From positions 1 to 40,666 of IMG/VR virus record IMGVR_UViG_2563366836_000013: a DNA stretch of 40,666 nt. One strand, 5' to 3'. Positions 1,549-39,741 of the stretch are shown here, one piece after another. The translations under genes and the position numbers were made by a program. The stretch's first letter is position 1. The number at the start of each line of letters is the position of its first letter. This DNA comes from a virus (taxonomy: Duplodnaviria; Heunggongvirae; Uroviricota; Caudoviricetes). Under the pieces are notes generated by a model. It saw only the letters and a program-made list of their open reading frames with translations. It was not told the origin of the DNA and searched no databases.

Positions 1549-1680
1549 GTTGAAGCCTGCTTTTTTATACTAAGTTGGCATTATAAAAAAGCATTGCTTA
1601 TCAATTTGTTGCAACGAACAGGTCACTATCAGTCAAAATAAAATCATTATTTGATTTCAATTTTGTCCCACTCCCTGCCT
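1549..1680. other. Prophage attL (B-O-P'): 15-bp core 1559-1573 plus lambda-like P' arm
   Basis: Core GCTTTTTTATACTAA followed by GTTGGCATTATAAAAAAGCATTGCTTATCAATTTGTTGCAACGAACAGGTCACTATCAGTCAAAATAAAATCATTATTTGATTTC, matching the lambda attP P' arm as recalled; preceded by host B arm ...GAAGCCTGC. Confidence 0.9.
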
Positions 1681-2717
1681 CTGTCATCACGATACTGTGA
1701 TGCCATGGTGTCCGACTTATGCCCGAGAAGATGTTGAGCAAACTTATCGCTTATCTGCTTCTCATAGAGTCTTGCAGACAAACTGCGCAACTCGTGAAAG
1801 GTAGGCGGATCCCCTTCGAAGGAAAGACCTGATGCTTTTCGTGCGCGCATAAAATACCTTGATACTGTGCCGGATGAAAGCGGTTCGCGACGAGTAGATG
1901 CAATTATGGTTTCTCCGCCAAGAATCTCTTTGCATTTATCAAGTGTTTCCTTCATTGATATTCCGAGAGCATCAACATGCAATGCTGTTGGGATGGCAAT
2001 TTTTACGCCTGTTTTGCTTTGCTCGACATAAAGATATCCATCTACGATATCAGACCACTTCATTTCGCATAAATCACCAACTCGCTGCCCGGTAACAACA
2101 GCCAGTTCCATTGCAAGTCTAAGCCAACATGGTGATGATTCTGCTGCTTGATAAATTTTCAGGTATTCGTCAGCCGTAAGTCTTGATCTCCTTACCTCTG
2201 ATTTTGCTGCGCGAGTGGCAGCGACCGGGTTTGTTGTTATATGGCCTTCAGCTATTGCCTCTCGGAATGCATCGCTCAGTGTTGATCTGATTAACTTGGC
2301 TGACGCCGCCTTGCCCTCGTCTATGTATCCATTGAGCATTGCTGCAATTTCTTTTGTGGTGATGTCTTCAAGTGGAACATCAGGTAGCCCCCTCCTTATT
2401 GCTTTAATTTTGCTCATGTAATTTATAAGTGTCTTCTGCTTGATTCCTCTGCTGGCGAGGATTTTTTCGTAGCGATCAAGCCATGAATGTAACGTAACAG
2501 AATTATCACTGTTGATTCTCGCTGTCAGAGGCTTGTGTTTGTGTCCTGAAAATAACTCAATGTTTGCCTGTATTGCTTCAGTAATTGCTATCCTCCTGTC
2601 TCTGCCTAATCCGAACTCTTTACCCGTCCTTGGGTCCCTGTAGCAGTAATATCCATTGTTTCTTATATAAAGGTTAGGGGGTAAATCCCGGCGCTCATGA
2701 CTTCGCCTTCTTCCCAT
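1647..2717 (-). CDS. int: Lambda-type tyrosine integrase Int
   Basis: 356 aa, MGRRRSHERRDLPPNLYIRNNGYYCYRDPRTGKEFGLG... essentially identical to lambda Int as recalled; adjacent to P' arm. Confidence 0.97.
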   Translation of the reverse strand: MGRRRSHERRDLPPNLYIRNNGYYCYRDPRTGKEFGLGRDRRIAITEAIQANIELFSGHKHKPLTARINSDNSVTLHSWLDRYEKILASRGIKQKTLINYMSKIKAIRRGLPDVPLEDITTKEIAAMLNGYIDEGKAASAKLIRSTLSDAFREAIAEGHITTNPVAATRAAKSEVRRSRLTADEYLKIYQAAESSPCWLRLAMELAVVTGQRVGDLCEMKWSDIVDGYLYVEQSKTGVKIAIPTALHVDALGISMKETLDKCKEILGGETIIASTRREPLSSGTVSRYFMRARKASGLSFEGDPPTFHELRSLSARLYEKQISDKFAQHLLGHKSDTMASQYRDDRGREWDKIEIK

Positions 2718-2913: not shown

Positions 2914-3027
2914 CGCAAAGTCTCCGCAATTACACGCAAGAAAAAGCCGCATTGATGCGGCGATGGTAGGTCTGGATATCATTGAGCAATGAACAGGCCT
3001 CATCGAGTGTGAGGCTGTATGGCTCCA

Positions 3028-3333
3028 TTATTTCACCTCTTGCTGTGTCATTGTTGAAAAATGGATACCAGCTCGTTGCTGCCAGACGATCCAACCGAGA
3101 GTCATATCCCATGCCATGTATTCGTTATCGCCGTTTTTTGCTCTCCGACGATCTACTAAGTCACCGAAACGCTTTTCCATGAATAATTCATAGGCTTCGC
3201 GTTCATCTGGCTCTACTTCCAGAGATACGAGTGCGATTTCATAAGCACGGCGCTCAATATCGTCTCGAACCTCTAGGCTGCTGATTCGTTCTTTGATTTC
3301 TTTAATCAGTTCTTTATTGGTAAATGTGGTCAT
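3028..3333 (-). CDS. Hypothetical early protein (YfdT-like position)
   Basis: 101-aa ORF, acidic helical protein, stop/start coupled with the upstream gene; same order as the CPS-53 yfdP-T cluster. Confidence 0.5.
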   Translation of the reverse strand: MTTFTNKELIKEIKERISSLEVRDDIERRAYEIALVSLEVEPDEREAYELFMEKRFGDLVDRRRAKNGDNEYMAWDMTLGWIVWQQRAGIHFSTMTQQEVK

Positions 3334-3695
3334 TATGCTCCAGCCTCCGGTGCTTTTGGCATTACTGCCCAGTGAGTGATATTGACGTTTTCAAGGTCCC
3401 CGACCTGAAATATCCACTGCCATTCTCCGGTTTCTTTTTGTCCCCAGGTGTACCAGAGAGAACGCCAGCCAATCAGCCAGCCTTCTCCATTAGCATCAAA
3501 TAACAGAACACTTTCATTTGCTGGTGGCAGTTCAGCTGACACTGGTATTATTTTGTTTTCCAGTGCCGCACATTTAGCTTCAAGCGCGTCGAATTTACGT
3601 ACCAGGTACTCAGCATTTGTTTCGTTCACTTTCAGATCTCGCGGTACACATTTCCCGCGAAGAAACCCTTCCATTTCGAAAACATTCATGCGCAT
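3333..3695 (-). CDS. DUF551-like protein (YfdS-like)
   Basis: 120 aa; C-terminal PVSAELPP ... THWAVMPKAPE resembles the DUF551 signature; packed between neighbours. Confidence 0.55.
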   Translation of the reverse strand: MRMNVFEMEGFLRGKCVPRDLKVNETNAEYLVRKFDALEAKCAALENKIIPVSAELPPANESVLLFDANGEGWLIGWRSLWYTWGQKETGEWQWIFQVGDLENVNITHWAVMPKAPEAGA

Positions 3696-5174: not shown

Positions 5175-5239
5175 AATAAGTCCTCACTATATAAAGATAT
5201 TCAGTGATGAGATAAATAATCAGTTTATTACGAACGATA

Positions 5240-5602
5240 TTAACGACCTGCTGCGCGGAGTTTTCCGTCAGGTTCACCGGCAAGAGTCAGTAATTGTCCC
5301 TGGTCTTCCTGCAGAATAGTCAGGCGACCACCGCGATTGACATACATCGGCGTTTCGGTGGTGTCTTCTTCGGAAATTTTCCCGCGGTTAGTCGGGCGAA
5401 TATATGAGAGTTTGTGTTTGATTTTCACACGGTTCTCATCAAATGGTTCGATTTCCAGGTTGAGTGAGACCTTACCTTTGGTTTTCGTGTTCATCACACC
5501 GGAAGCGACTTCACTGAGAACTGCGCCGATTTTGGTTTCAAATACGCCGCCGTCCAGCTCCCCGATAAATGCCTGCACATCAGTACTGCGTTCGCTAGCC
5601 AT
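5240..5602 (-). CDS. YfdP-like hypothetical protein (120 aa)
   Basis: Start at ATG (MASERSTDVQAFIGEL...) preceded by AGGAG 8 nt upstream; the longer ORF-track version (to 5920) runs into GC-rich non-coding sequence. Confidence 0.6.
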   Translation of the reverse strand: MASERSTDVQAFIGELDGGVFETKIGAVLSEVASGVMNTKTKGKVSLNLEIEPFDENRVKIKHKLSYIRPTNRGKISEEDTTETPMYVNRGGRLTILQEDQGQLLTLAGEPDGKLRAAGR

Positions 5603-6071
5603 TTTGCTGCTCCTCATCATATCGACCCTGCAAGGCCGATTAGTTTCTCCACAAAACAGAGAAGAACACCTGTGGTGGCCGCCGCCCGGATGGATTGGGT
5701 TATGAGCCCGTCGTCCGGTGATGCTCTTCTCTGTTTTGTAAAAAGGACGGTACCAGCCGGAAGCAAGGGTACAAGCTGGTACCGCCAGGACTACACACAG
5801 CATAAAGTTGTGGTGCCGGGTGCCTCCCGGTGCCTGGCGAAGGTTGCACACCAGGCGGGTGGGTATCCACAGAAGGTCGACTGTCAGCCTCAACCTTAAC
5901 CCGCGTGCGCTGAGCCGCATTCACCACAACGCTAAGGATTCTCTCTGGTTGAAAATACTTAGCTGTTATGTGCCTGCTTTTAGCCACATCAGGCGAGGTG
6001 GACCTGGTTATTCCCCAACAACAAGGATTCGGTTAATCTGGATATCCCCAACAACAATAAGAGTATTCAAT

Positions 6072-6587
6072 GTGATCGCTGAATTAACGGCAGCAATGAC
6101 GGCTATTCGTGAAACAGCCCAGATTGCAAAACTAATGAACGAGGCAAAAACTCAAGCTGAAGTAAATGCGGCTATTGGTGAGCTGAACTCAAAGCTTGCG
6201 TCTATTCAGCGCGAATGCGTGTCTCTCGTTGAACTGGTGGGCTCTTATCAAGAAATAAATGCTTCTCTCAAAGCTAAAATTGCAGAATTCGAAAACTTTG
6301 AGGCTCAGACGGAAGGCTATATCCTTAACCAACTTGAGTCGGGTACTTTTGTATACTCGAAGGAGGTAATCGTGAACGGTGGCAGCATAACCATGCATCT
6401 TTGCCCAAAATGTTTTGGACAAAAGATAGTATCGATACTTCAACCATTCCCGGTTAGCGAAGATGAGCTTTTTCATAAAAGCAGGTGCCTCCACTGTGAA
6501 AATAAGTTTCTGATGAATAAAAATCCGGATTACGTATCGCCTCCATCCATTGAGGAGTTGTCCAGAAAACTTAACGGCAATCTGTAG
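6072..6587 (+). CDS. Orphan coiled-coil / zinc-ribbon protein, unknown function
   Basis: About 171 aa from GTG 6072 (AAGAG upstream; alternative ATG at 6096); N-terminal heptad-like helix, C-terminal CPKC-x24-CLHC; opposite strand to all flanking early-left genes; followed by a hairpin terminator. Confidence 0.5.
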   Translation: MIAELTAAMTAIRETAQIAKLMNEAKTQAEVNAAIGELNSKLASIQRECVSLVELVGSYQEINASLKAKIAEFENFEAQTEGYILNQLESGTFVYSKEVIVNGGSITMHLCPKCFGQKIVSILQPFPVSEDELFHKSRCLHCENKFLMNKNPDYVSPPSIEELSRKLNGNL

Positions 6588-6625
6588 ATTACTACTGTTG
6601 TGGATATCCAGATTGTTAAAGAGCT

Positions 6626-6650
6626 AAGCGTCCTGTAGGGCGCTTTTTTG
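6626..6650 (+). terminator. Rho-independent terminator after the orphan zinc-ribbon gene
   Basis: AAGCGTCC-TGTA-GGGCGCTT stem followed by TTTTG. Confidence 0.55.
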
Positions 6651-6734
6651 TTGCTAACGAATCATCCTGGACTTCATATGCCCCAGGCGGCTACTTCGTG
6701 GGCGTCCTGCCTGTTCGTTATCTATGATATAAAA

Positions 6735-6805
6735 TCTAACTTAACTTAGTTATTATGGCAAGAGAAAACACCAAACTTTTCTTAGTTCGGTGCCTTAGTT
6801 AGAGA
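6735..6805. promoter_or_regulatory. Putative OL operator cluster (repeated CTTAGTT half-sites) / PL region
   Basis: Several copies of ACTTAGTT / CTTAGTT just beyond the 3' end of the repressor gene; same motif recurs in the cI-cro intergenic region. Confidence 0.4.
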
Positions 6806-6814
6806 AGAGAGGCC

Positions 6815-7441
6815 TTAGAGTTCGTATTGAACTCCTTTGACTACACCAATGATAAGGCAATTACCATTGATAGGGATGTTGGGATACCGAGGATTTAATG
6901 GCACTAAAAACTTTTGAGGGCCATCGATGACTAATTTTTTTACTGTAGCTTCGTTTGTTCCATCAAGTCGAGCGATGACTATTTTTCCATGACGAGGTTC
7001 TGCATCTGGATCTACAATCACTGTTGCGCCTTCTGGTATTGTTGGGAGGCCATTAGGGTTAGTCATGGAGTCACCTTTAACCTCTAATGCAAATGAGTTA
7101 TCACCAACCTTTAATGATGTATCTACCCACTTGTCCACTTCACTAAACACTTCTGCTGCCCTGCACTCAGTAAACTGCCCAGCCTGAACCCACGATATTA
7201 CAGGAACTCTGCGCATGTTTGTGACGAGTTTGCCTTCAAACTCAGCACCATAAAGAATGTAATCTATTGACGTATTGAAGAACTTCGCTAATTTCGAAAG
7301 TGCCTCCCCACCAGGGGTATTGATGTCTTTCTCCCAGTACCCCACAGCAACGTCGCTTACTCCACAAAATTTACCCAATTCTTTCTGGGACGTTCTGGTA
7401 ACTCTTCTCAGAGCTTTTATACGCTGACCAACCGTTTCCAT
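6815..7441 (-). CDS. CI-like repressor (XRE HTH N-terminus plus LexA/S24-type autocleavage domain)
   Basis: 208 aa; N-terminal HTH (QKELGKFCGVSDVAVGYWE), C-terminal S24 peptidase-like region (GDSM...K); divergent from the cro-like gene. Confidence 0.9.
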   Translation of the reverse strand: METVGQRIKALRRVTRTSQKELGKFCGVSDVAVGYWEKDINTPGGEALSKLAKFFNTSIDYILYGAEFEGKLVTNMRRVPVISWVQAGQFTECRAAEVFSEVDKWVDTSLKVGDNSFALEVKGDSMTNPNGLPTIPEGATVIVDPDAEPRHGKIVIARLDGTNEATVKKLVIDGPQKFLVPLNPRYPNIPINGNCLIIGVVKGVQYEL

Positions 7442-7538
7442 AGGAGCACCATTTCTTTAATTACTAAGTAATCTTAGTTTTTATTGACCAAAGATAGATT
7501 TGTAATTAGCATCTAACAAAACTTAGTTTGGAGGGCGT
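7442..7538. promoter_or_regulatory. OR / PR-PRM region between repressor and cro-like gene
   Basis: Palindromes ATTACTAAGTAAT and AAACTTAGTTT (CTTAGT half-sites), a TTGACC -35-like hexamer, and GGAGG RBS before the cro-like ATG. Confidence 0.5.
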
Positions 7539-7739
7539 ATGACAACTGACGATATCGAAAGCTACTTCGGCAGTATTGAGAAAGTTGCTGCTTTTTTCGG
7601 CATAACAACTGAAGCCGTTTATCAGTGGCGAAACCGTCCGGGCCAGTTAATTCCAAAAGGACGTGCAGCAGAAGCTGCATATAGAACTTGCGGACGGTTG
7701 CCATTTAAACCTGAGCTTTATGAAAAATCTAATGGATAA
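7539..7739 (+). CDS. Cro-like HTH regulator (YdaS-family)
   Basis: 66 aa, FFGITTEAVYQWRNRPGQLIP resembles YdaS/Cro-type HTH; first gene rightward of the repressor; GGAGG RBS. Confidence 0.75.
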   Translation: MTTDDIESYFGSIEKVAAFFGITTEAVYQWRNRPGQLIPKGRAAEAAYRTCGRLPFKPELYEKSNG

Positions 7740-8334
7740 ATCGATTAACAGAAACCACAGAACGATGAGGCTAACCGTGGGTAAGCATCACTGGAAAGTA
7801 GAAAAACAGCCTGAGTGGTACGTGAAAGCTGTCAGAAAAACTATCGCAAAGTTGCCGGGTGGTTACGCTGAAGCAGCTGACTGGCTGGATGTAACAGAGA
7901 ACGCATTATTTAACCGCCTTCGTGCCGATGGCGATCAGATTTTCCCGCTGGGATGGGCAATGATTTTGCAACGTGCTGGTGGCACTCACTTCATTGCTGA
8001 TGCTGTGGCGCAGTCTGCAAATGGCGTCTTTGTGTCGCTTCCTGACGTCGAGGATGTGGACAACGCCGATATTAACCAGCGTCTGCTGGAAGTCATTGAA
8101 CAGATCGGCAGTTATTCAAAACAGATTCGTTCAGCAATCGAAGACGGTGTAGTGGAACCGCATGAGAAGACAGCAATTAACGACGAGCTGTATCTCTCAA
8201 TTTCGAAGCTGCAGGAGCATGCAGCACTGGTCTACAAAATCTTTTGCATTTCAGAAAGTAATGACGCCCGCGAGTGTGCAGCTCCGGGCGTCGTGGCGTC
8301 GATTGCTTCTGGTTGTGGAGAAACTAACGCATGA
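7720..8334 (+). CDS. CII-like regulatory protein (YdaT / Phage_CP76-like)
   Basis: Position immediately after cro; start set at ATG 7720 ([10 protein letters not shown]...), overlapping cro end; start uncertain. Confidence 0.45.
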
Positions 8335-18122: not shown

Positions 18123-18617
18123 ATGGCTGGAACGGCGGGGCGTTCCGGGCGTCGCCCCAAGCCAACGGCGCGCAAGGCGCTGGCCGGAAACCCCGGCAAG
18201 CGAGCCCTGAATAAAGATGAACCTGTTTTTACGCCCATCAAAGGTGTTGAGCCACCGGAGTGGTTCGCTGAAGAAGATCTCCCTCTCGCTACGATCATGT
18301 GGCAACTGACAACTAAAGAACTCTGCGGTCAGGGCCTGCTGTGCGTGACTGACCTTGCGGTGCTTGAGCGGTGGTGCGTGGCCTACGAGTTCTGGCGACG
18401 TGCCGTGAAAAATATTGCCAGACAGGGCAACACCATCACCGGTGCAATGGGCGGTATGGTCAAAAATCCGGAGCTGACTGCCAAAAAAGAACAGGAGTCC
18501 GAGATGAGCAGTACGGGGGCAATGCTCGGACTCGACCCCAGCAGCCGCCAGCGTCTGATTGGCCTGGCGGGGAAGAAGAAAGCCACTAACCCGTTTCTGA
18601 AAATCATCGAATCATGA
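18123..18617 (+). CDS. Terminase small subunit (P27 family)
   Basis: [34 protein letters not shown] matches the P27-family TerS N-terminus; AGGAG RBS; ATGA overlap with TerL. Confidence 0.8.
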
Positions 18618-20358: not shown

Positions 20359-20541
20359 ATGATCATGCTGATTCTCGCGCCTCTGGTGGGCGTGCTGGGG
20401 GCGCTTTTGCTGGCGTATGGTGCCTGGCTGATTTATCCCCCGGCGGGGTTTGTTGTTGCCGGGGCGTTGTGTCTGTTCTGGTCGTGGCTGGTGGCGCGAT
20501 ATCTCGACCGTACACAGTCGTCTGTCGGCGGAGGTAAATAG
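20359..20541 (+). CDS. Small membrane protein (60 aa), unknown
   Basis: GAGG RBS, two hydrophobic helices, stop overlaps portal GTG start (TAGTG). Confidence 0.4.
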
Positions 20542-21782
20542 TGTTCTTTTCGGGATTATTTCAACGAAAAAGTGACGCACCGGTGACCACGCCAGCAGAG
20601 CTGGCGGATGTTATCGGGTTGTCCTACGACACCTATACCGGAAAGCAGATCAGCAGCCAGCGGGCCATGCGACTGACGGCGGTTTTTTCCTGTGTCAGGG
20701 TGCTGGCGGAGTCGGTCGGGATGTTGCCCTGCAACCTGTATCACCTGAACGGCAGTCTGAAGCAGAGAGCCGCTGGCGAACGTCTGCATAAGCTGATCTC
20801 CACGCATCCCAATGGCTATATGACGCCGCAGGAGTTCTGGGAGCTGGTGGTCACCTGTCTGTGCCTGCGGGGAAACTTTTACGCCTACAAAGTGAAAGCA
20901 TTTGGCGAAGTGGCTGAACTGCTGCCCGTCGATCCCGGCTGTGTGGTACCGAAGCTTAACAGTAGCTGGGAGCCGGTCTATCAGGTCACATTCCCGGATG
21001 GCTCCACGGATGTACTGAGCCAGGAGGATATCTGGCATGTGCGCACGCTGACGCTGGACGGACTGGTGGGGCTGAATCCCATCGCCTATGCCCGCGAGGC
21101 AATATCGCTGGCGGCAGCGACCGAAGAGCACGGGGCCAGACTGTTTAGCAATGGCGCGGTGACGTCGGGTGTGTTGCGTACAGAGCAGACGCTGTCAGAT
21201 CAGGCTTATGAGCGCCTGAAGAAAGATTTTGAGGAGCGTCACACCGGGCTTGGCAATGCTCACCGCCCGATGATCCTTGAGATGGGGCTGGACTGGAAGT
21301 CGATGGCGCTGAACGCCGAGGACAGCCAGTTCCTGGAAACCCGCAAGTTTCAGCTTGAAGAAATCTGTCGTCTGTTCCGGGTGCCGTTGCACATGGTGCA
21401 GAACACCGATCGCGCCACCTTCAACAATATCGAAGAGCTGGGGCTGGGATTTATCAACTATTCACTGGTGCCGTATCTGACCCGCATCGAACAGCGGATC
21501 AACACCGGACTGGTACGAAAAAGTAAGCAGGGCGTTTATTACGCCAAATTTAACGCCGGGGCGTTACTGCGCGGGGATATGAAGTCCCGTTTTGAAGCCT
21601 ACGCCACCGGGATCAACTGGGGAATTTACTCTCCCAATGACTGCCGCGACCTGGAAGATATGAATCCACGACCCGGTGGTGATGTCTATCTCACACCGAT
21701 GAACATGACCACGAAACCCTCCGATGGCAGTAAAGCCGGTAAGCAGAAGGATAACGCCAATGCAGACGAAACAACGTCTTGA
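20541..21782 (+). CDS. Portal protein (HK97 family)
   Basis: 413 aa, GTG start with GGAGG RBS; portal-like sequence and position after TerL. Confidence 0.9.
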   Translation: MFFSGLFQRKSDAPVTTPAELADVIGLSYDTYTGKQISSQRAMRLTAVFSCVRVLAESVGMLPCNLYHLNGSLKQRAAGERLHKLISTHPNGYMTPQEFWELVVTCLCLRGNFYAYKVKAFGEVAELLPVDPGCVVPKLNSSWEPVYQVTFPDGSTDVLSQEDIWHVRTLTLDGLVGLNPIAYAREAISLAAATEEHGARLFSNGAVTSGVLRTEQTLSDQAYERLKKDFEERHTGLGNAHRPMILEMGLDWKSMALNAEDSQFLETRKFQLEEICRLFRVPLHMVQNTDRATFNNIEELGLGFINYSLVPYLTRIEQRINTGLVRKSKQGVYYAKFNAGALLRGDMKSRFEAYATGINWGIYSPNDCRDLEDMNPRPGGDVYLTPMNMTTKPSDGSKAGKQKDNANADETTS

Positions 21783-36815: not shown

Positions 36816-36992
36816 TTATATGGTACAACTGCGCAGAGGCCTGTCTCTTCAATTGTGCCAGTTGAATACTACGATACAACGCTCGGCCTTCCTGTTTGGT
36901 GGAACATAACCACATCCACATGGAAAAGAGCTGATGGTGCAGATGTATAATTCTGGTGCCGCGCATGCGGCACCAATAAAAAACATATTAAA

Positions 36993-38468
36993 CTAAAGTG
37001 AATCTATTCCATTTTTCCAAATAAGAACTTTTTTGTCTTGTATTTTATGAGTGCTATCAGGCTGCCCAAACTGTTTTATGGCCTTTTCCTCTTGCTCTAC
37101 ATCATCAGCAATTAAAAAATTAGCTCCTTTTTGGTACCATTCTTTTTTTGATAACCAATTATATGGTGTGAATCTATCACCATACGACTCAAATGGAGCT
37201 ACGTTGATATCACTAAATCCAGCAACAGATGATGCAAACCAAAATGATGCATAACCTCTTTGTAGTTTATTTTTTATTAAGAAATCTCTTAATTCTATTG
37301 TAATATCATTTTTATTAACAATGTTTTTTGTTGTTGCCATCGTTGGCAACGATAACGCAATAACGATTAATGATATTAGTAAATTTGTCTTCACTGGTAA
37401 GGAGAAAGAATTTCTAGCAATCACAATTGACATGAAAATAAACGTTGGGACTATGTATCTAATTGAGAAAAGATTTGTTGGCCTGTCACTTGAAACATAG
37501 GCAATCAACATGACTAATGATGATACAATAAGAACCTGGTCAATAAAATCAATTTCTTTAAATTTAAGAATGTTTTTATAAGATAAAAATAAGAATACAA
37601 AAATGAAAAACACCTTTATCATGGTGAATAATGAGTTAAAGCTACCTATCTCCATTCCAAACGCGTACCCACCAAAAAATTTGAATACGCCCATGATAAC
37701 AAGAGATATGTTGCTTGTTATTTGTTGAAACTCTACTATGTGAGGTTTGGTTATGCCTGGCAGGTTAAATCCACCAAGCTTAATGAATATAAATGATATG
37801 AGCTCAGCAATAAATATAGATGATATAGTGAAAACCAACAATAACAAATCATTAGTATTCAACGAATCTCTTTTCATTAGAGAAGCATACATTCTATATA
37901 TGCAAACAAAAACTATAGGTATTATAAAGGCATATTTAGATATATCATCACTAAAAACAAGCAACGATAACATAAATACATATGGAAAAAGTAATTTTAA
38001 ATCATTTTTCTTTCTGTATCTATCTATTATTAGTATGATCGCCAGCATGTAAATGTACGCACCAATATGTATACATGCTATAAGCATTATACTTGATGAG
38101 AAAACCGTTGGAATTCCAAATACAGAAAGAACAGGCCATAACGATGCCCTGCTTTTAGTATGAGAGATATATAGCGATAGTGTTACTAACATAGACATGA
38201 AAATTCCAGGCACAATATAGTACAGATTTTCATTAAATCCTATTATTTTTATCGCTATAGCATATGGTATTATTTCTGTGAAATAGAATGATACAGTTGA
38301 TAAATCCCACCCACTGAGAAAAATATTTCCTTCAGTAATATCCCTTGCCTCTCTGAATGAAGACATGACATCTGAGTTTGGAATTATGTTTTTAGCAATC
38401 ATTGAGTAAATTATTGATAATACAATAAATGTTGCCAGCCAATATAAAAGCTCAAGCTTCTTGCTCAT
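36993..38468 (-). CDS. GtrC-type serotype-specific O-antigen glucosyltransferase (polytopic membrane protein)
   Basis: 491 aa, very AT-rich, many TM helices, immediately downstream of gtrA-gtrB (ATGA-coupled). Confidence 0.8.
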
Positions 38469-39382
38469 TTTTTACCCTTAAGTACATACTTTGGACGCTG
38501 CTTAACTTCAATGTAAATTCTACCAATATACTCACCGAGCACTCCAATCCCAATTAACTGGATGCCGCCAAGAAATAATATTGATACAAGAATTGAAGGG
38601 TATCCAGGTACATTATTACCAAAAATTAATTTATCAATTATCATCCATGAACCGTATGTAAATGATATACATGCAATAAATAACCCAATATAGGTCCACA
38701 TGCGAAGCGGGAATGTTGAGAAGCTAGTGATCCCTTCCAGCGCCAAGTTCCATAGCTTCCATCCATTGAACTTTGTGCTTCCTGCAACGCGTTCTGCTCG
38801 CGCATATTCTACGACATCGGTTCGACCACCAACCCAGCTCAGCACACCCTTCATAAACAGGTTTCGTTCTGGCATGAGCTTAATGTTTTCTACTACTTCG
38901 CGAGACATGAGCCGGAAGTCGCCAACATTCTCTTCTATCTGAGGGTTGCTGATTTTGTTATGAAGTTTATAGAACCACTCAGCAGATTTACGCTTCAGCC
39001 TGCTGTCAGTGGAGCGGTCAGAGCGTTTAGCCAGAACCATATCTGCACCGGCCTGCCATTTCTCTATCAAGTGAGGAATAACTTCGATAGGGTCTTGCAG
39101 ATCAACGTCAATCGGGATAATTGCCTCCCCGGTAGCATGGTCCAGACCTGCGAACAGGGCGGGTTCTTTGCCGAAGTTACGTGTGAACGACAGCGAAACA
39201 ACAAGCGGGTCGGCAACAGCAAGCTCGTTGATAATTGATTCTGTAGCGTCTTTGCTGCCATCGTTTATGAAGACTATCTCGACTTCATGCTGCTGAAGCC
39301 CTTCAAATTCGCGCACAGTTTTATAAAAAATAGGTATCGTGGCCTCTTCGTTAAAGACCGGAACGACTAAAGAAATTTTCAT
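38465..39382 (-). CDS. gtrB: GtrB bactoprenol glucosyltransferase (GT2 family)
   Basis: 305 aa, [13 protein letters not shown]...FINDGSKD...DVDLQDP GT2 motifs and C-terminal TM helices. Confidence 0.92.
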
Positions 39383-39741
39383 TTCGCATCCCTAAAGACA
39401 ATGAACTTTGAATAGACGAAACCGCACACCAGGCTGATGGCGGAGAAGGTGACAAGAGTTATCATCGGGGGAAGTGCGCATCTATCAGCAGCCCATCCAA
39501 CAGTAGCACTGAGTGTTCCCATGAACCCGACATATAACATGTAGCGCATCGTTGTAGTTGATGCTTTGAATGTGAATTTTGCATTCGCGAAGAAGCTAAA
39601 ACTCACAGCCACAACGAAACCTGCGAAGTTTGCCAGAGCCTGATTGGTATGCGCGGCATAGATACATACACCAAAAACCACCCAGTGTATAAGTGTGTTC
39701 AGCACACCAATCGAGGTGTACCTTGCAAATATATTTAACAT
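39379..39741 (-). CDS. gtrA: GtrA flippase (bactoprenol-linked glucose translocase)
   Basis: 120 aa, four TM helices, GtrA-like; first gene of operon. Confidence 0.9.

Follow-up and report, generated by a model that had tools for sequence, protein, structure and literature searches.

A probable divergent Rip1-family gene in an exchangeable cargo slot beside the immunity region of an SfV-like prophage

Results

Gene content of the locus

The stretch of DNA analyzed in this study (the window; 40,666 nucleotides) was found to be a complete SfV-like prophage integrated between ybhC and ybhB. All annotated genes from int/xis to yfdT, yfdR, yfdQ and yfdP, as well as the LexA/CI-type repressor gene, lie on the minus strand, and the sole rightward gene from int to the repressor is that at 6072-6587, which bears out the opposite-strand arrangement described in the first-pass annotation. 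The features of the gene and of its flanks are the following.

5971-6071, plus strand: leader module of about 100 nt that precedes every cargo and is conserved between genera
6035-6060, no strand assigned: left arm, with the core AATCTGGATATCC, of an inverted repeat on either side of the cargo
6059-6063, plus strand: AAGAG, weakly resembling a Shine-Dalgarno sequence and spaced 8 nt from the GTG
6072 (GTG)-6587 (TAG), plus strand: rip1-like coding sequence, 171 aa, WP_000559922.1
6589-6614, no strand assigned: right arm of that repeat, immediately past the stop codon, with the core GGATATCCAGATT
6613-6624, minus strand (that of the PL transcript): consensus boxA GCTCTTTAACAA, the same sequence as the boxA in the annotated nutL of HK620
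6626-6650, plus strand: intrinsic terminator of the cargo gene, an 8-bp G+C-rich hairpin and a T-run
6733-6761, minus strand: candidate PL, TTGCCA-17-TAGATT, among CTTAGT/ACTAAG operator-like repeats
6815-7441, minus strand: CI/LexA-type repressor gene (HTH_3 and Peptidase_S24), given for context only

The same coordinates are annotated by RefSeq/PGAP as WP_000559922.1, a "hypothetical protein", in an E. coli chromosome of 99.99% identity, and of 5,426 complete E. coli genomes, 383 contained 80% or more of the 1.2-kb locus. The protein matched phrog_1244 (E = 9.3e-60, residues 5-156 of 171), and the family profile matched 2,624 clusters at 50% identity, all of about 145-180 aa. Moreover, the substitutions between homologues were distributed as 34, 17 and 63 over the first, second and third codon positions of the plus frame. 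The 171-aa opposite-strand ORF proposed earlier is therefore a real gene under purifying selection, and coding clearly resides mainly in the sense frame. The GTG start was backed by the N-terminus, since MIAEL or MLAEF opens all close homologues, and by the conservation of A7 and A11 (at least 90%), which reaches upstream of the internal ATG at 6096. A GTG or TTG start was also found in diverged genera, and the (A/T)GAGTATTCAAA-GTG context was conserved among rip1-type cargos; the other cargos of the slot have ATG starts and stronger Shine-Dalgarno sequences.

The terminator scan recovered the 8-bp hairpin at 6626-6645, followed by TTTTTTGTTG, and the stem was conserved across genera with a variable loop, so that the terminator first noticed after the 171-aa gene is confirmed. 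The sigma-70 scan of 5200-7800 gave no passing plus-strand site upstream of the rip1-like gene, and inspection of the conserved leader revealed no convincing -35/-10 and no sigma-54 motif; a search of the window with Rfam at gathering thresholds gave no match. The candidate PL lies just downstream of the repressor gene. The arrangement suggests that the rip1-like gene may be expressed in the lysogen and silenced by antisense PL transcription.

The cargo slot

SfV, SfIV and Kati share the flanks of the gene and carry other cargo in the slot, and at least four or five unrelated, uncharacterized cargo types were found behind the same leader. Judging from these sequence comparisons, many cargos can replace one another in this slot, which separates the PL/boxA region from the early-left genes, and the rip1-like gene is one of them. 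The leader contains a direct repeat, TCCCCAACAACAA, at 6012-6024 and 6045-6057, and upstream of the leader module the sequence was unrelated between genera. Searches of the alternative cargos with Pfam and PADLOC gave nothing significant.

The inverted repeat bracketing the cargo was conserved and co-varying, and its arms are complementary over 13 bp (6035-6047 with 6602-6614). Its arms were considered as Hin/Gin-type inversion sites, and this was rejected because the cargo has a single orientation at all of the about 120 loci; moreover, we know of no sequence resemblance between the repeat and Hin/Gin-type sites. A minus-strand-specific RNA stem was likewise considered and rejected. The excess of G.U-compatible mismatches on the minus strand (50:9) is a trivial outcome of the C/A-rich left arm and does not constitute evidence for such a stem.

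Architecture of the protein

The AlphaFold2 model of the 171-aa protein (pLDDT 89.9) consisted of two helices, 2-24 and 28-79, followed by a beta-rich domain at 84-150. The corresponding stretches of DNA are given below.

6075-6308, plus strand: long N-terminal helix, codons 2-79 (helices 2-24 and 28-79 in AlphaFold2), the putative pore-forming part by homology
6321-6521, plus strand: beta-rich zinc-ribbon domain, codons 84-150, the putative ring-binding part by homology
6402-6413 and 6486-6497, plus strand: predicted zinc knuckles C111/C114 and C139/C142

The first-pass annotation had described an N-terminal coiled coil and a C-terminal zinc ribbon. The CPKC-x24-CLHC motif was exact (C111-P-K-C114, 24 residues, C139-L-H-C142) and the N-terminal helix was recovered, but the helix is, by homology, probably the amphipathic pore-forming part of the protein and not a classical coiled coil. 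Its amphipathicity was moderate, not strong (muH of 0.40-0.44 at residues 7-30 and 37-54), and no hydrophobic transmembrane segment was found in it. None of the four cysteines varied among 36 close and 55 distant members of the family, nor did Y95 across 55 sequences at about 25% identity, and S121-I122-L123 was nearly invariant in the family.

Relationship to Rip1

The 171-aa protein produced no more than sub-threshold coiled-coil noise in searches of Pfam, NCBIfam and PADLOC, and the PADLOC result is explained by the age of the library, which dates from 2023. The PHROG family phrog_1244 carries no functional annotation and is older than the description of Rip1, which is said to be that of Patel et al. 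2026, Nature 651:1060.

In searches of the PDB, phmmer aligned residues 14-150 of the query with residues 28-159 of chain 9oox_L (E = 2.7e-7), with both CxxC pairs aligned, and the 36-member profile matched the same Rip1 chain with E = 2.6e-19 and 72.7 bits (profile 5-156, chain 15-160 of 164). Foldseek of the AlphaFold2 model gave 9oox_M with E = 5.8e-7, a TM score of 0.55/0.72 and 120 columns; 9oox_M and 9oox_L were the only significant matches, the next having E = 0.37. Thus the profile and structure searches that the first-pass annotation had named as a check both found Rip1. According to its PDB title, 9OOX is HK446 Rip1 in complex with the T6 small terminase. BLASTP gave 27% identity to HK446_037, the 9OOX sequence (E = 4e-11), and 29% identity to JBD30_030 (E = 9e-20). 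Single-protein scans with HkaP and with the HK446 homologue returned near-identical copies almost exclusively.

Rip1 (ring interacting pore 1) is presented as a prophage defence protein in a review (PMC13434031) and a meeting report (PMC12908700), and the review names the small-terminase or portal rings of the invading phage as its trigger. The defining features of Rip1 were taken from the review and from the PDB title of 9OOX. The window protein was found to have full-length homology, the same fold, the arrangement of helix plus C-terminal domain, and the CxxC pairs; its four cysteines aligned with the cysteine pairs of 9oox_L, and metal binding is predicted. Furthermore, 6072-6587 is a stand-alone gene of a temperate prophage with its own terminator, as expected of Rip1. 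Taken together, these results indicate with good confidence that 6072-6587 (plus strand) encodes a divergent Rip1-family protein. Rip1 proteins give prophages an abortive-infection defence that consists of one protein. The notion of an exclusion-type moron was thereby strengthened, as the Rip1-family homology and fold, the swappable slot cargo and the recurring antisense placement within a lytic operon all agree with it. Because the identity to the tested proteins is just 27-29%, trigger specificity, or even activity, could differ from that of tested Rip1.

The same low identity of 27-29% leaves some room for a homologue that serves its own phage, either in lysis timing or packaging through the terminase or portal ring of that phage, or as a zinc-ribbon regulator that forms no pore. 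The prophage has a P27-family small terminase (18123-18617) and a portal protein (20541-21782) of its own, which also bears on self-activation, and the Pseudomonas homologues are located between terS and terL. However, the gene runs against the lytic operons and has a terminator of its own, which argues for lysogen-type expression, and it is dispensable and swappable, with unrelated cargo in its place in related phages. In addition, tested Rip1 proteins protect against other phages, as stated in the review (PMC13434031). A function for the phage itself, or as such a regulator, was thus regarded as improbable, and assignment to the Rip1 family as a defence protein is preferred.

The boxA element and the question of an N gene

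The boxA GCTCTTTAACAA at 6613-6624 was the sole exact copy in the window and follows the candidate PL at a distance of about 100 nt, as would be expected of the boxA of a nut site. The 17-mer GCTCTTTAACAATCTGG recurred in many unrelated phage contigs. No small boxB was found after the boxA, which is followed by the stem of the long-range inverted repeat instead, and no second boxA with two or fewer mismatches was found on the plus strand after cro. Among the annotated genes and ORFs of the window, no N gene was recognized. The remark in the first-pass annotation that no N-like antiterminator is visible in the expected position was therefore upheld, and a consensus, nutL-like boxA is nevertheless present on the minus strand.

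Opposite the rip1-like gene, the minus strand carries the following open frame.

6189-6494, minus strand: in-register antisense ORF, 101 aa from GTG 6494 or 95 aa from ATG 6476

This ORF could be imagined as the true and only product of the region, for instance an N-like antiterminator encoded after nutL, with the plus-strand ORF as its shadow. It lies directly downstream of the consensus boxA on the strand of the PL transcript, its product of 95-101 aa is basic and N-protein-like, and no other N candidate was visible between PL and yfdP. However, the purifying-selection signature (34/17/63) is located in the plus frame, and it is the plus frame that has thousands of homologues, a relative of solved structure and a confident fold. 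The minus product had no homologue in Pfam, PHROGs or NCBIfam and is without an N-terminal arginine-rich motif. Moreover, HK446 and HK630/HK620 have the same antisense open frame beside rip1/hkaP, yet a separate annotated N gene, and phages whose slot holds another cargo do not have the minus ORF. The minus ORF was consequently rejected as an N-like gene on account of the selection in the plus frame, the lack of an arginine-rich N-terminus and the lack of a family match, and we consider it extremely unlikely that it is the sole product.

The antisense open frame

A different possibility adds to the assignment to Rip1 rather than replacing it: the region might be dual-coding, in which case the PL transcript would direct translation of the antisense frame as well when the phage grows lytically. 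The antisense frame is open over 6192-6623, and its openness, not its sequence, is conserved across the family; a GGAGG is located 11 nt upstream of ATG 6476 on the minus strand. Sense codons that give antisense stops (TTA, CTA and TCA) made up 25 of the 86 Leu and Ser codons in sense codons 1-46 and only 4 of 167 in codons 47-145. The test covered 10 representatives from three subfamilies of 30% mutual identity or less, with a gene GC of 0.39-0.46, and gave a Fisher p of about 1e-9, although the sequences are not fully independent. In the other cargo genes of the slot, which have the same GC, the corresponding codons amounted to 83/315 (26%), and antisense open runs were 29-71 codons long, compared with 93-133 in the Rip1-like genes. 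Under the codon usage of the prophage itself, the open antisense frame of the window gene had a probability of about 0.007.

Individual codons followed the same pattern. In 12 of 20 sequences the codon of the invariant L42 is CTA or TTA, so that a stop is conserved on the antisense strand. The rare codon ATA encodes I122 in 18 of the 20, and S121 is TCG or TCT, both of which read as Arg on the antisense strand. In addition, the antisense ORF is constant in size (88-103 aa), has its start codon near the second CxxC and is preceded by an SD-like motif in about 8 of 11 cases, and the homologues are all antisense within a lytic operon.

Against these observations, codon identity between subfamilies at identical amino-acid sites was just 1.14 times the expectation, which gives no evidence that an antisense protein sequence is under selection. 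Synonymous-site conservation as proof of a functional antisense protein was accordingly rejected, as strong conservation was not found. The antisense peptide resembles a typical antisense translation (pI 10.4, 20% aromatic residues, no family matches). Codon bias is known to give rise to in-register antisense ORFs, and such ORFs were common in the GC-rich late genes of the same prophage. Furthermore, the antisense RNA had no C-rich, rut-like composition, and a general need for anti-polarity is not evident because the other cargos of the slot are without a comparable antisense ORF. On balance, dual coding is a tentative proposal that we would rather doubt than accept. If it held, the ORF could be a sequence-independent "pass-through" on which translating ribosomes block Rho-dependent polarity; alternatively, it could encode a small basic protein that antagonizes Rip1 and provides self-immunity.

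Discussion

The lambda rexAB and sieB genes, the P22 sieA and sieB genes and BTP1 bstA are the classical exclusion or abortive-infection genes of immunity regions. These genes are expressed from the prophage, are located in or near the immunity or early-left region and protect the lysogen, and several of them act on the membrane. The window protein is unrelated to RexAB, SieA/SieB and BstA in sequence and fold, and its searches against Pfam, PADLOC, PHROGs and NCBIfam gave no match to classical exclusion genes. Among these systems, sensing of oligomeric ring proteins is specific to Rip1.

The HK446 Rip1 (164 aa) and the window protein (171 aa) are homologous over their full length, with a Foldseek TM score of 0.72 on the target. 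The window protein shares with the HK446 and JBD30 Rip1 proteins the long N-terminal helix, the C-terminal beta domain and the four aligned cysteines, and the three genes are all prophage-encoded, single and opposite to the lytic operon; characterized Rip1 is also carried by JBD/DMS3-type prophages of P. aeruginosa. The positions, however, are different. The window gene lies in an SfV-like myovirus between the boxA/PL region beside the repressor and the yfdP-type early-left genes, whereas HK446 rip1 lies between N and cIII and the JBD30 homologue between terS and terL. Homologues antisense inside the PL operon were found in HK446, HK630/HK620 and 689R2. Unlike the genes of HK446 and JBD30, the window gene is a cassette bracketed by an inverted repeat and has a GTG start. 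HkaP of HK620/HK630 belongs to the same family but to a different subfamily (28% identity, tblastn E = 3e-13), and its gene is rightward within the leftward PL operon, with the same antisense open frame as the window gene; the CxxC pairs are conserved in HkaP, too. As early as 2001, the authors of HK620 had annotated the hkaP product as a "putative superinfection exclusion protein". In contrast to the window, HK620 carries N as a separate gene, its nutL is of the classical type with a boxB, and it is without the bracketing inverted repeat of the window type.

By analogy, we infer that the mechanism of the window protein is the same as that of Rip1. In the lysogen, the prophage would, by homology, make the Rip1-like protein at a low, non-toxic level, a proposal that fits with the GTG start and the weak Shine-Dalgarno sequence. 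Once a superinfecting phage has entered the late stage of its cycle, the ring-shaped oligomer of its small terminase or portal would be bound by the C-terminal domains, and about 12 Rip1 subunits would be templated into a ring. The N-terminal amphipathic helices of this ring would then form a pore in the inner membrane, and the host cell would be permeabilized or lysed ahead of the maturation of progeny. Upon induction, convergent PL transcription across the rip1-like gene would reduce its expression, as the anatomy of the locus suggests.

A wider reading of the locus, which we put forward only speculatively, is that the genes of the Rip1 family are dual-use DNA and that the defence gene is looped in a co-varying long-range stem after the boxA. 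As the antisense frame is open over codons of about 47-145, the lytic operon would read an ORF through the defence gene, and this ORF could be an anti-polarity "pass-through" or a self-immunity peptide made only in the lytic phase of the prophage itself. The stem would lie in the PL leader directly after the rrn-type boxA, and unrelated cargos may be swapped there without disturbing early-left transcription.

In conclusion, a gene annotated as a "hypothetical protein" gains a name and a testable mechanism. Its probable membership extends the Rip1 family by a divergent enterobacterial subfamily and by a new genomic position beside the immunity region. Since several unrelated cargos are located behind the same leader, the slot offers a ready-made site in which to look for more prophage defence genes. 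If the antisense frame and the stem with its boxA are functional, this locus would show how a temperate phage can house a potentially suicidal defence gene within its lytic operon and leave induction unharmed.

Results

The rip1-like gene lies in a complete SfV-like prophage with a myovirus-type tail and an HK97-type head, flanked by ybhC and ybhB in the lambda attachment region. The prophage of E. coli SCU-105 is 99.99% identical to the window. In that prophage, an IS3 element lies inside int and the remainder is identical, and the int of the window (1647-2717) is intact; positions 13-162, at the very left edge, code for the C-terminus of an IS3-family transposase. At the right end, gtrA, gtrB and a third gene of low GC (0.31), at about 36990-39740 on the plus strand, form an O-antigen modification (serotype-conversion) module typical for SfV-like phages.

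Features of the prophage and of the cassette
Left part, minus strand: int, xis, yfdT, phage protein, yfdR, yfdQ, yfdP, in this order
6035-6060: left arm of the inverted repeat, AATCTGGATATCCCCAACAACAATAA, bracketing the cargo
6072-6587, plus strand: rip1-like gene, between yfdP and the repressor gene
6589-6614: right arm, an imperfect complement of AATCTGGATATCCCCAACAACAATAA, directly 3' of the stop codon
6613-6624, minus strand (PL-transcript strand): boxA GCTCTTTAACAA, exact consensus
6815-7441, minus strand: LexA/CI-type repressor, HTH_3 and Peptidase_S24
Right of the repressor, rightward: cro, ymfL, replication genes, Q, lysis, terS/terL/portal, head, tail, gtr

The open reading frame runs from a GTG at 6072 to 6587 (171 aa) and is identical to the PGAP CDS WP_000559922.1, a "hypothetical protein". 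The GTG start is supported because MIAEL is also the N-terminus of homologues, because residues ahead of the internal Met9 are conserved, and because diverged genera retain GTG or TTG after (A/T)GAGTATTCAAA. The first-pass annotation had described an opposite-strand gene between int and the repressor, followed by a terminator at 6626-6650 and encoding a CPKC-x24-CLHC motif. All of this was confirmed: homologues differ mainly at the third codon position of the plus frame (20/5/45 and 34/17/63 by codon position in two examples), the terminator scan returned a hairpin of 8 bp (6626-6645) with a T-run behind it, and the cysteines are spaced C111-x2-C114-x24-C139-x2-C142. No plus-strand sigma-70-type promoter for the gene was found by a sigma-70 scan and inspection of the leader. 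A perfect 12-nt palindrome, AGTATCGATACT, occurs within the gene at 6428-6439 and spans the near-invariant S121-I122-L123.

The protein had no significant match in Pfam, NCBIfam or PADLOC (2023), and matched phrog_1244 (function unknown) in PHROGs at E = 9e-60. A search of PDB sequences with the single protein retrieved 9oox_L, "ring interacting pore 1 (Rip1)" (E = 2.7e-7), in an alignment that pairs the two CxxC motifs of each protein, and a 36-member family profile retrieved the same chain at E = 2.6e-19 over almost the entire length of both proteins. A confident AlphaFold2 model built with the 36-member alignment (pLDDT 89.9) consists of a long helix (2-24, 28-79) followed by a beta-rich domain, and in a Foldseek search of the PDB its only significant matches were 9oox_M/L (E = 5.8e-7, TM 0.55/0.72). 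Entry 9OOX is titled [quoted passage not shown], and its Rip1 sequence is that of HK446_037, which shares 27% BLASTP identity with the window protein; the Pseudomonas-type JBD30_030 shares 29%. The profile matched 2,624 50%-identity clusters (E <= 1e-3), all of about 145-180 aa, and only Y95 and the four cysteines were invariant across 55 diverse members. The N-terminal helix is moderately amphipathic (muH <= 0.44), and no transmembrane segment was found in the 171 aa. Membership of the Rip1 family is therefore very probable, and these comparisons support the gene as a divergent, newly recognised member, in a new genomic position, of a family already known (2026).

Homology to SfIV and Kati ends at window position 6055 and restarts at 6608; these phages, SfV and others share the flanks with the window and carry a different cargo. 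When IMG/VR was scanned with the left junction, about 120 loci (L-numbers) were recovered. They share a leader of about 100 nt (window 5971-6071), and no more than about 15 nt beyond it come the Shine-Dalgarno (SD) sequence and start codon of differing, unrelated plus-strand genes. In these viral contigs the cargo is bracketed by the leader and a 13-26-nt inverted repeat, after which GTTAAAGAGC and a terminator always follow. Window 5971-6650 is a swappable cargo slot. The leader module also occurs in Citrobacter, Kosakonia, Scandinavium, Symbiopectobacterium, Kluyvera and Enterobacter, with unrelated sequence farther upstream.

Cargo types in the slot
Several rip1 subtypes
144-148-aa protein with a convergent 68-aa gene
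26-aa Pro-rich peptide, then a two-TM protein of about 150 aa
Further cargo types

None of the non-rip1 cargos received a Pfam or PADLOC assignment. The rip1-type cargos consistently start with GTG or TTG behind a weak SD, and the others with ATG behind stronger SDs; the former pattern would fit low-level production of a potentially lethal protein. In Kati and SfIV (L004/L005; cargo at 2957-3624 of the locus) and in L039, the 144-148-aa gene is met by a convergent minus-strand gene of 68-91 aa with a strong GAGGAGG SD ahead; since it starts directly after the right arm, the PL transcript would carry it ahead of any other ORF. In L027, L022, L028, L073, L096, L103 and L109, a 26-43-aa Pro/Lys-rich peptide follows the left arm, and then a protein of about 150-170 aa with two predicted TM helices and a weak, non-significant similarity to the PADLOC "2TM effector" (E ~0.01).

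Brackets of the type seen at 6035-6060/6589-6614 surround every cargo type. In an alignment of 47 distinct arm pairs, pairing held in 80.7% of cells, and changes on both sides occurred in 11 of 20 pairs. The covariation score was 0.096; shuffles gave 0.056 (0/500 reached 0.096), and sliding the partner gave no more than 0.051. The clearest cases, GATGACT replacing GATATCC in both arms (three loci) and GGATACCC in both arms (one locus), represent only about three independent events. A long-range stem was predicted on both strands (z = -3.3 for plus RNA, -5.0 for minus RNA). The inverted repeat may form an RNA stem, either within the cargo mRNA or within the PL transcript, may be an RNase III-type processing site or may act at the DNA level. 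A minus-strand G.U bias of the arm mismatches was rejected as a composition artefact.

Taken in the minus direction, GTTAAAGAGC, which is conserved, and the arm together give GCTCTTTAACAA-TCTGG. The 12-mer GCTCTTTAACAA, the consensus boxA of the rrn type, has its sole exact copy in the window here and is identical to the boxA of the curated nutL of HK620. A promoter-like TTGCCA-17-TAGATT (6761 to 6733, minus) is found about 100 nt upstream of it. This candidate PL lies among CTTAGT/ACTAAG operator-like repeats adjoining the repressor gene. Copies of the 17-mer GCTCTTTAACAA-TCTGG are present in many phage contigs unrelated to this one. Along the PL-transcript strand, the boxA comes after the hairpin which, in plus orientation, terminates the cargo gene, and the long-range stem follows it. 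Neither a small boxB-like hairpin after 6613-6624 nor a second boxA after cro was found. The remark that no N-like antiterminator was visible was borne out, as no N gene was found, and a nutL-like element is nevertheless present.

Shortly past the cassette, following PL transcription, the segment 5737-5960 (minus) gave a full-length, sub-threshold match to the prophage sRNA family STnc100 (42.4 bits, gathering score 47; E = 3.7e-7), which a 2026 preprint links to PasD. Overlapping this region upstream of yfdP, long ORFs at 5240-5987 (minus; 226 aa from 5920, 95 aa over 5700-5987) carry conflicting annotations (226-aa CDS in SfIV/Kati, "frameshifted hypothetical" by PGAP) and are probably noncoding.

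Discussion

In HK446, HK446_037 reads rightward between cIII and N within the leftward PL operon, and HkaP of HK630/HK620, labelled "putative superinfection exclusion protein" in 2001, is placed in the same way. In 689R2, as in the window, the homologue separates leftward early genes from the repressor gene, whose 3' end faces it, and JBD30_030 occupies the opposite strand between terS and terL. Because of these placements, an opposite-strand gene inside a lytic transcription unit is regarded as a family trait, and the central point of the first-pass annotation extends family-wide. Such a placement would favour expression in the lysogen and silencing during lytic growth.

In the account of Patel et al. 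(2026, Nature 651:1060) as relayed in a 2026 review (PMC13434031) and a meeting report (PMC12908700), Rip1 is a prophage protein, non-toxic alone, that protects from superinfecting phages; its homologues are widespread among proteobacterial prophages. Escapers are described there in the portal of Pseudomonas phages and the small terminase of E. coli phages, and cryo-EM showed an 11-mer ring of small terminase encircled by 12 Rip1 subunits, which contact it through the C-terminal half, the N-terminal part being an amphipathic helix. The same sources describe the assembly as a pore, with dye release from liposomes, holes in cells and premature lysis. Because the window protein shares this architecture (N-terminal helix, C-terminal beta-rich domain), the Rip1 mechanism was assigned to it by homology, and the protein would probably act in this way. 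Overall, the observation of the first-pass annotation was confirmed and its interpretation is supported.

The minus-strand ORF 6189-6494, in register with the sense codons, was rejected as the sole product since the plus frame has Rip1 homology, the fold and a large family. The in-register antisense frame is open over 144 codons (6189-6623, minus), and is open also in HK446 Rip1, HkaP, ECO95, 689R2 and Klebsiella homologues (GC 39-46%) and not in other slot cargos; open runs measured 93-133 codons in rip1-type genes versus 29-71 in other cargos. In a set of 10 representatives drawn from three subfamilies that are <= 30% identical to one another (GC of the genes 0.39-0.46), antisense-stop codons made up 25/86 of the Leu and Ser codons in codons 1-46 versus 4/167 in codons 47-145 (Fisher p ~1e-9), and 83/315 in other cargos of the slot. 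The L42 codon was CTA or TTA in 12/20 sequences, I122 was encoded by the rare ATA in 18/20 diverse homologues, and the S121 codons were those reading Arg on the other strand. The antisense ORFs comprise 88-103 aa, often with an SD-like motif upstream. The openness is an unexplained, family-wide feature and is not trivial. It is compatible with translation of this frame, either as a pass-through ORF or to make a self-immunity peptide, a reading that is rather doubtful. Against a functional antisense protein, codon identity between subfamilies was only 1.14 times expectation, and the antisense peptide has no relatives. Together with the cassette architecture, the antisense open frame is a part of this system that a specialist might not expect.
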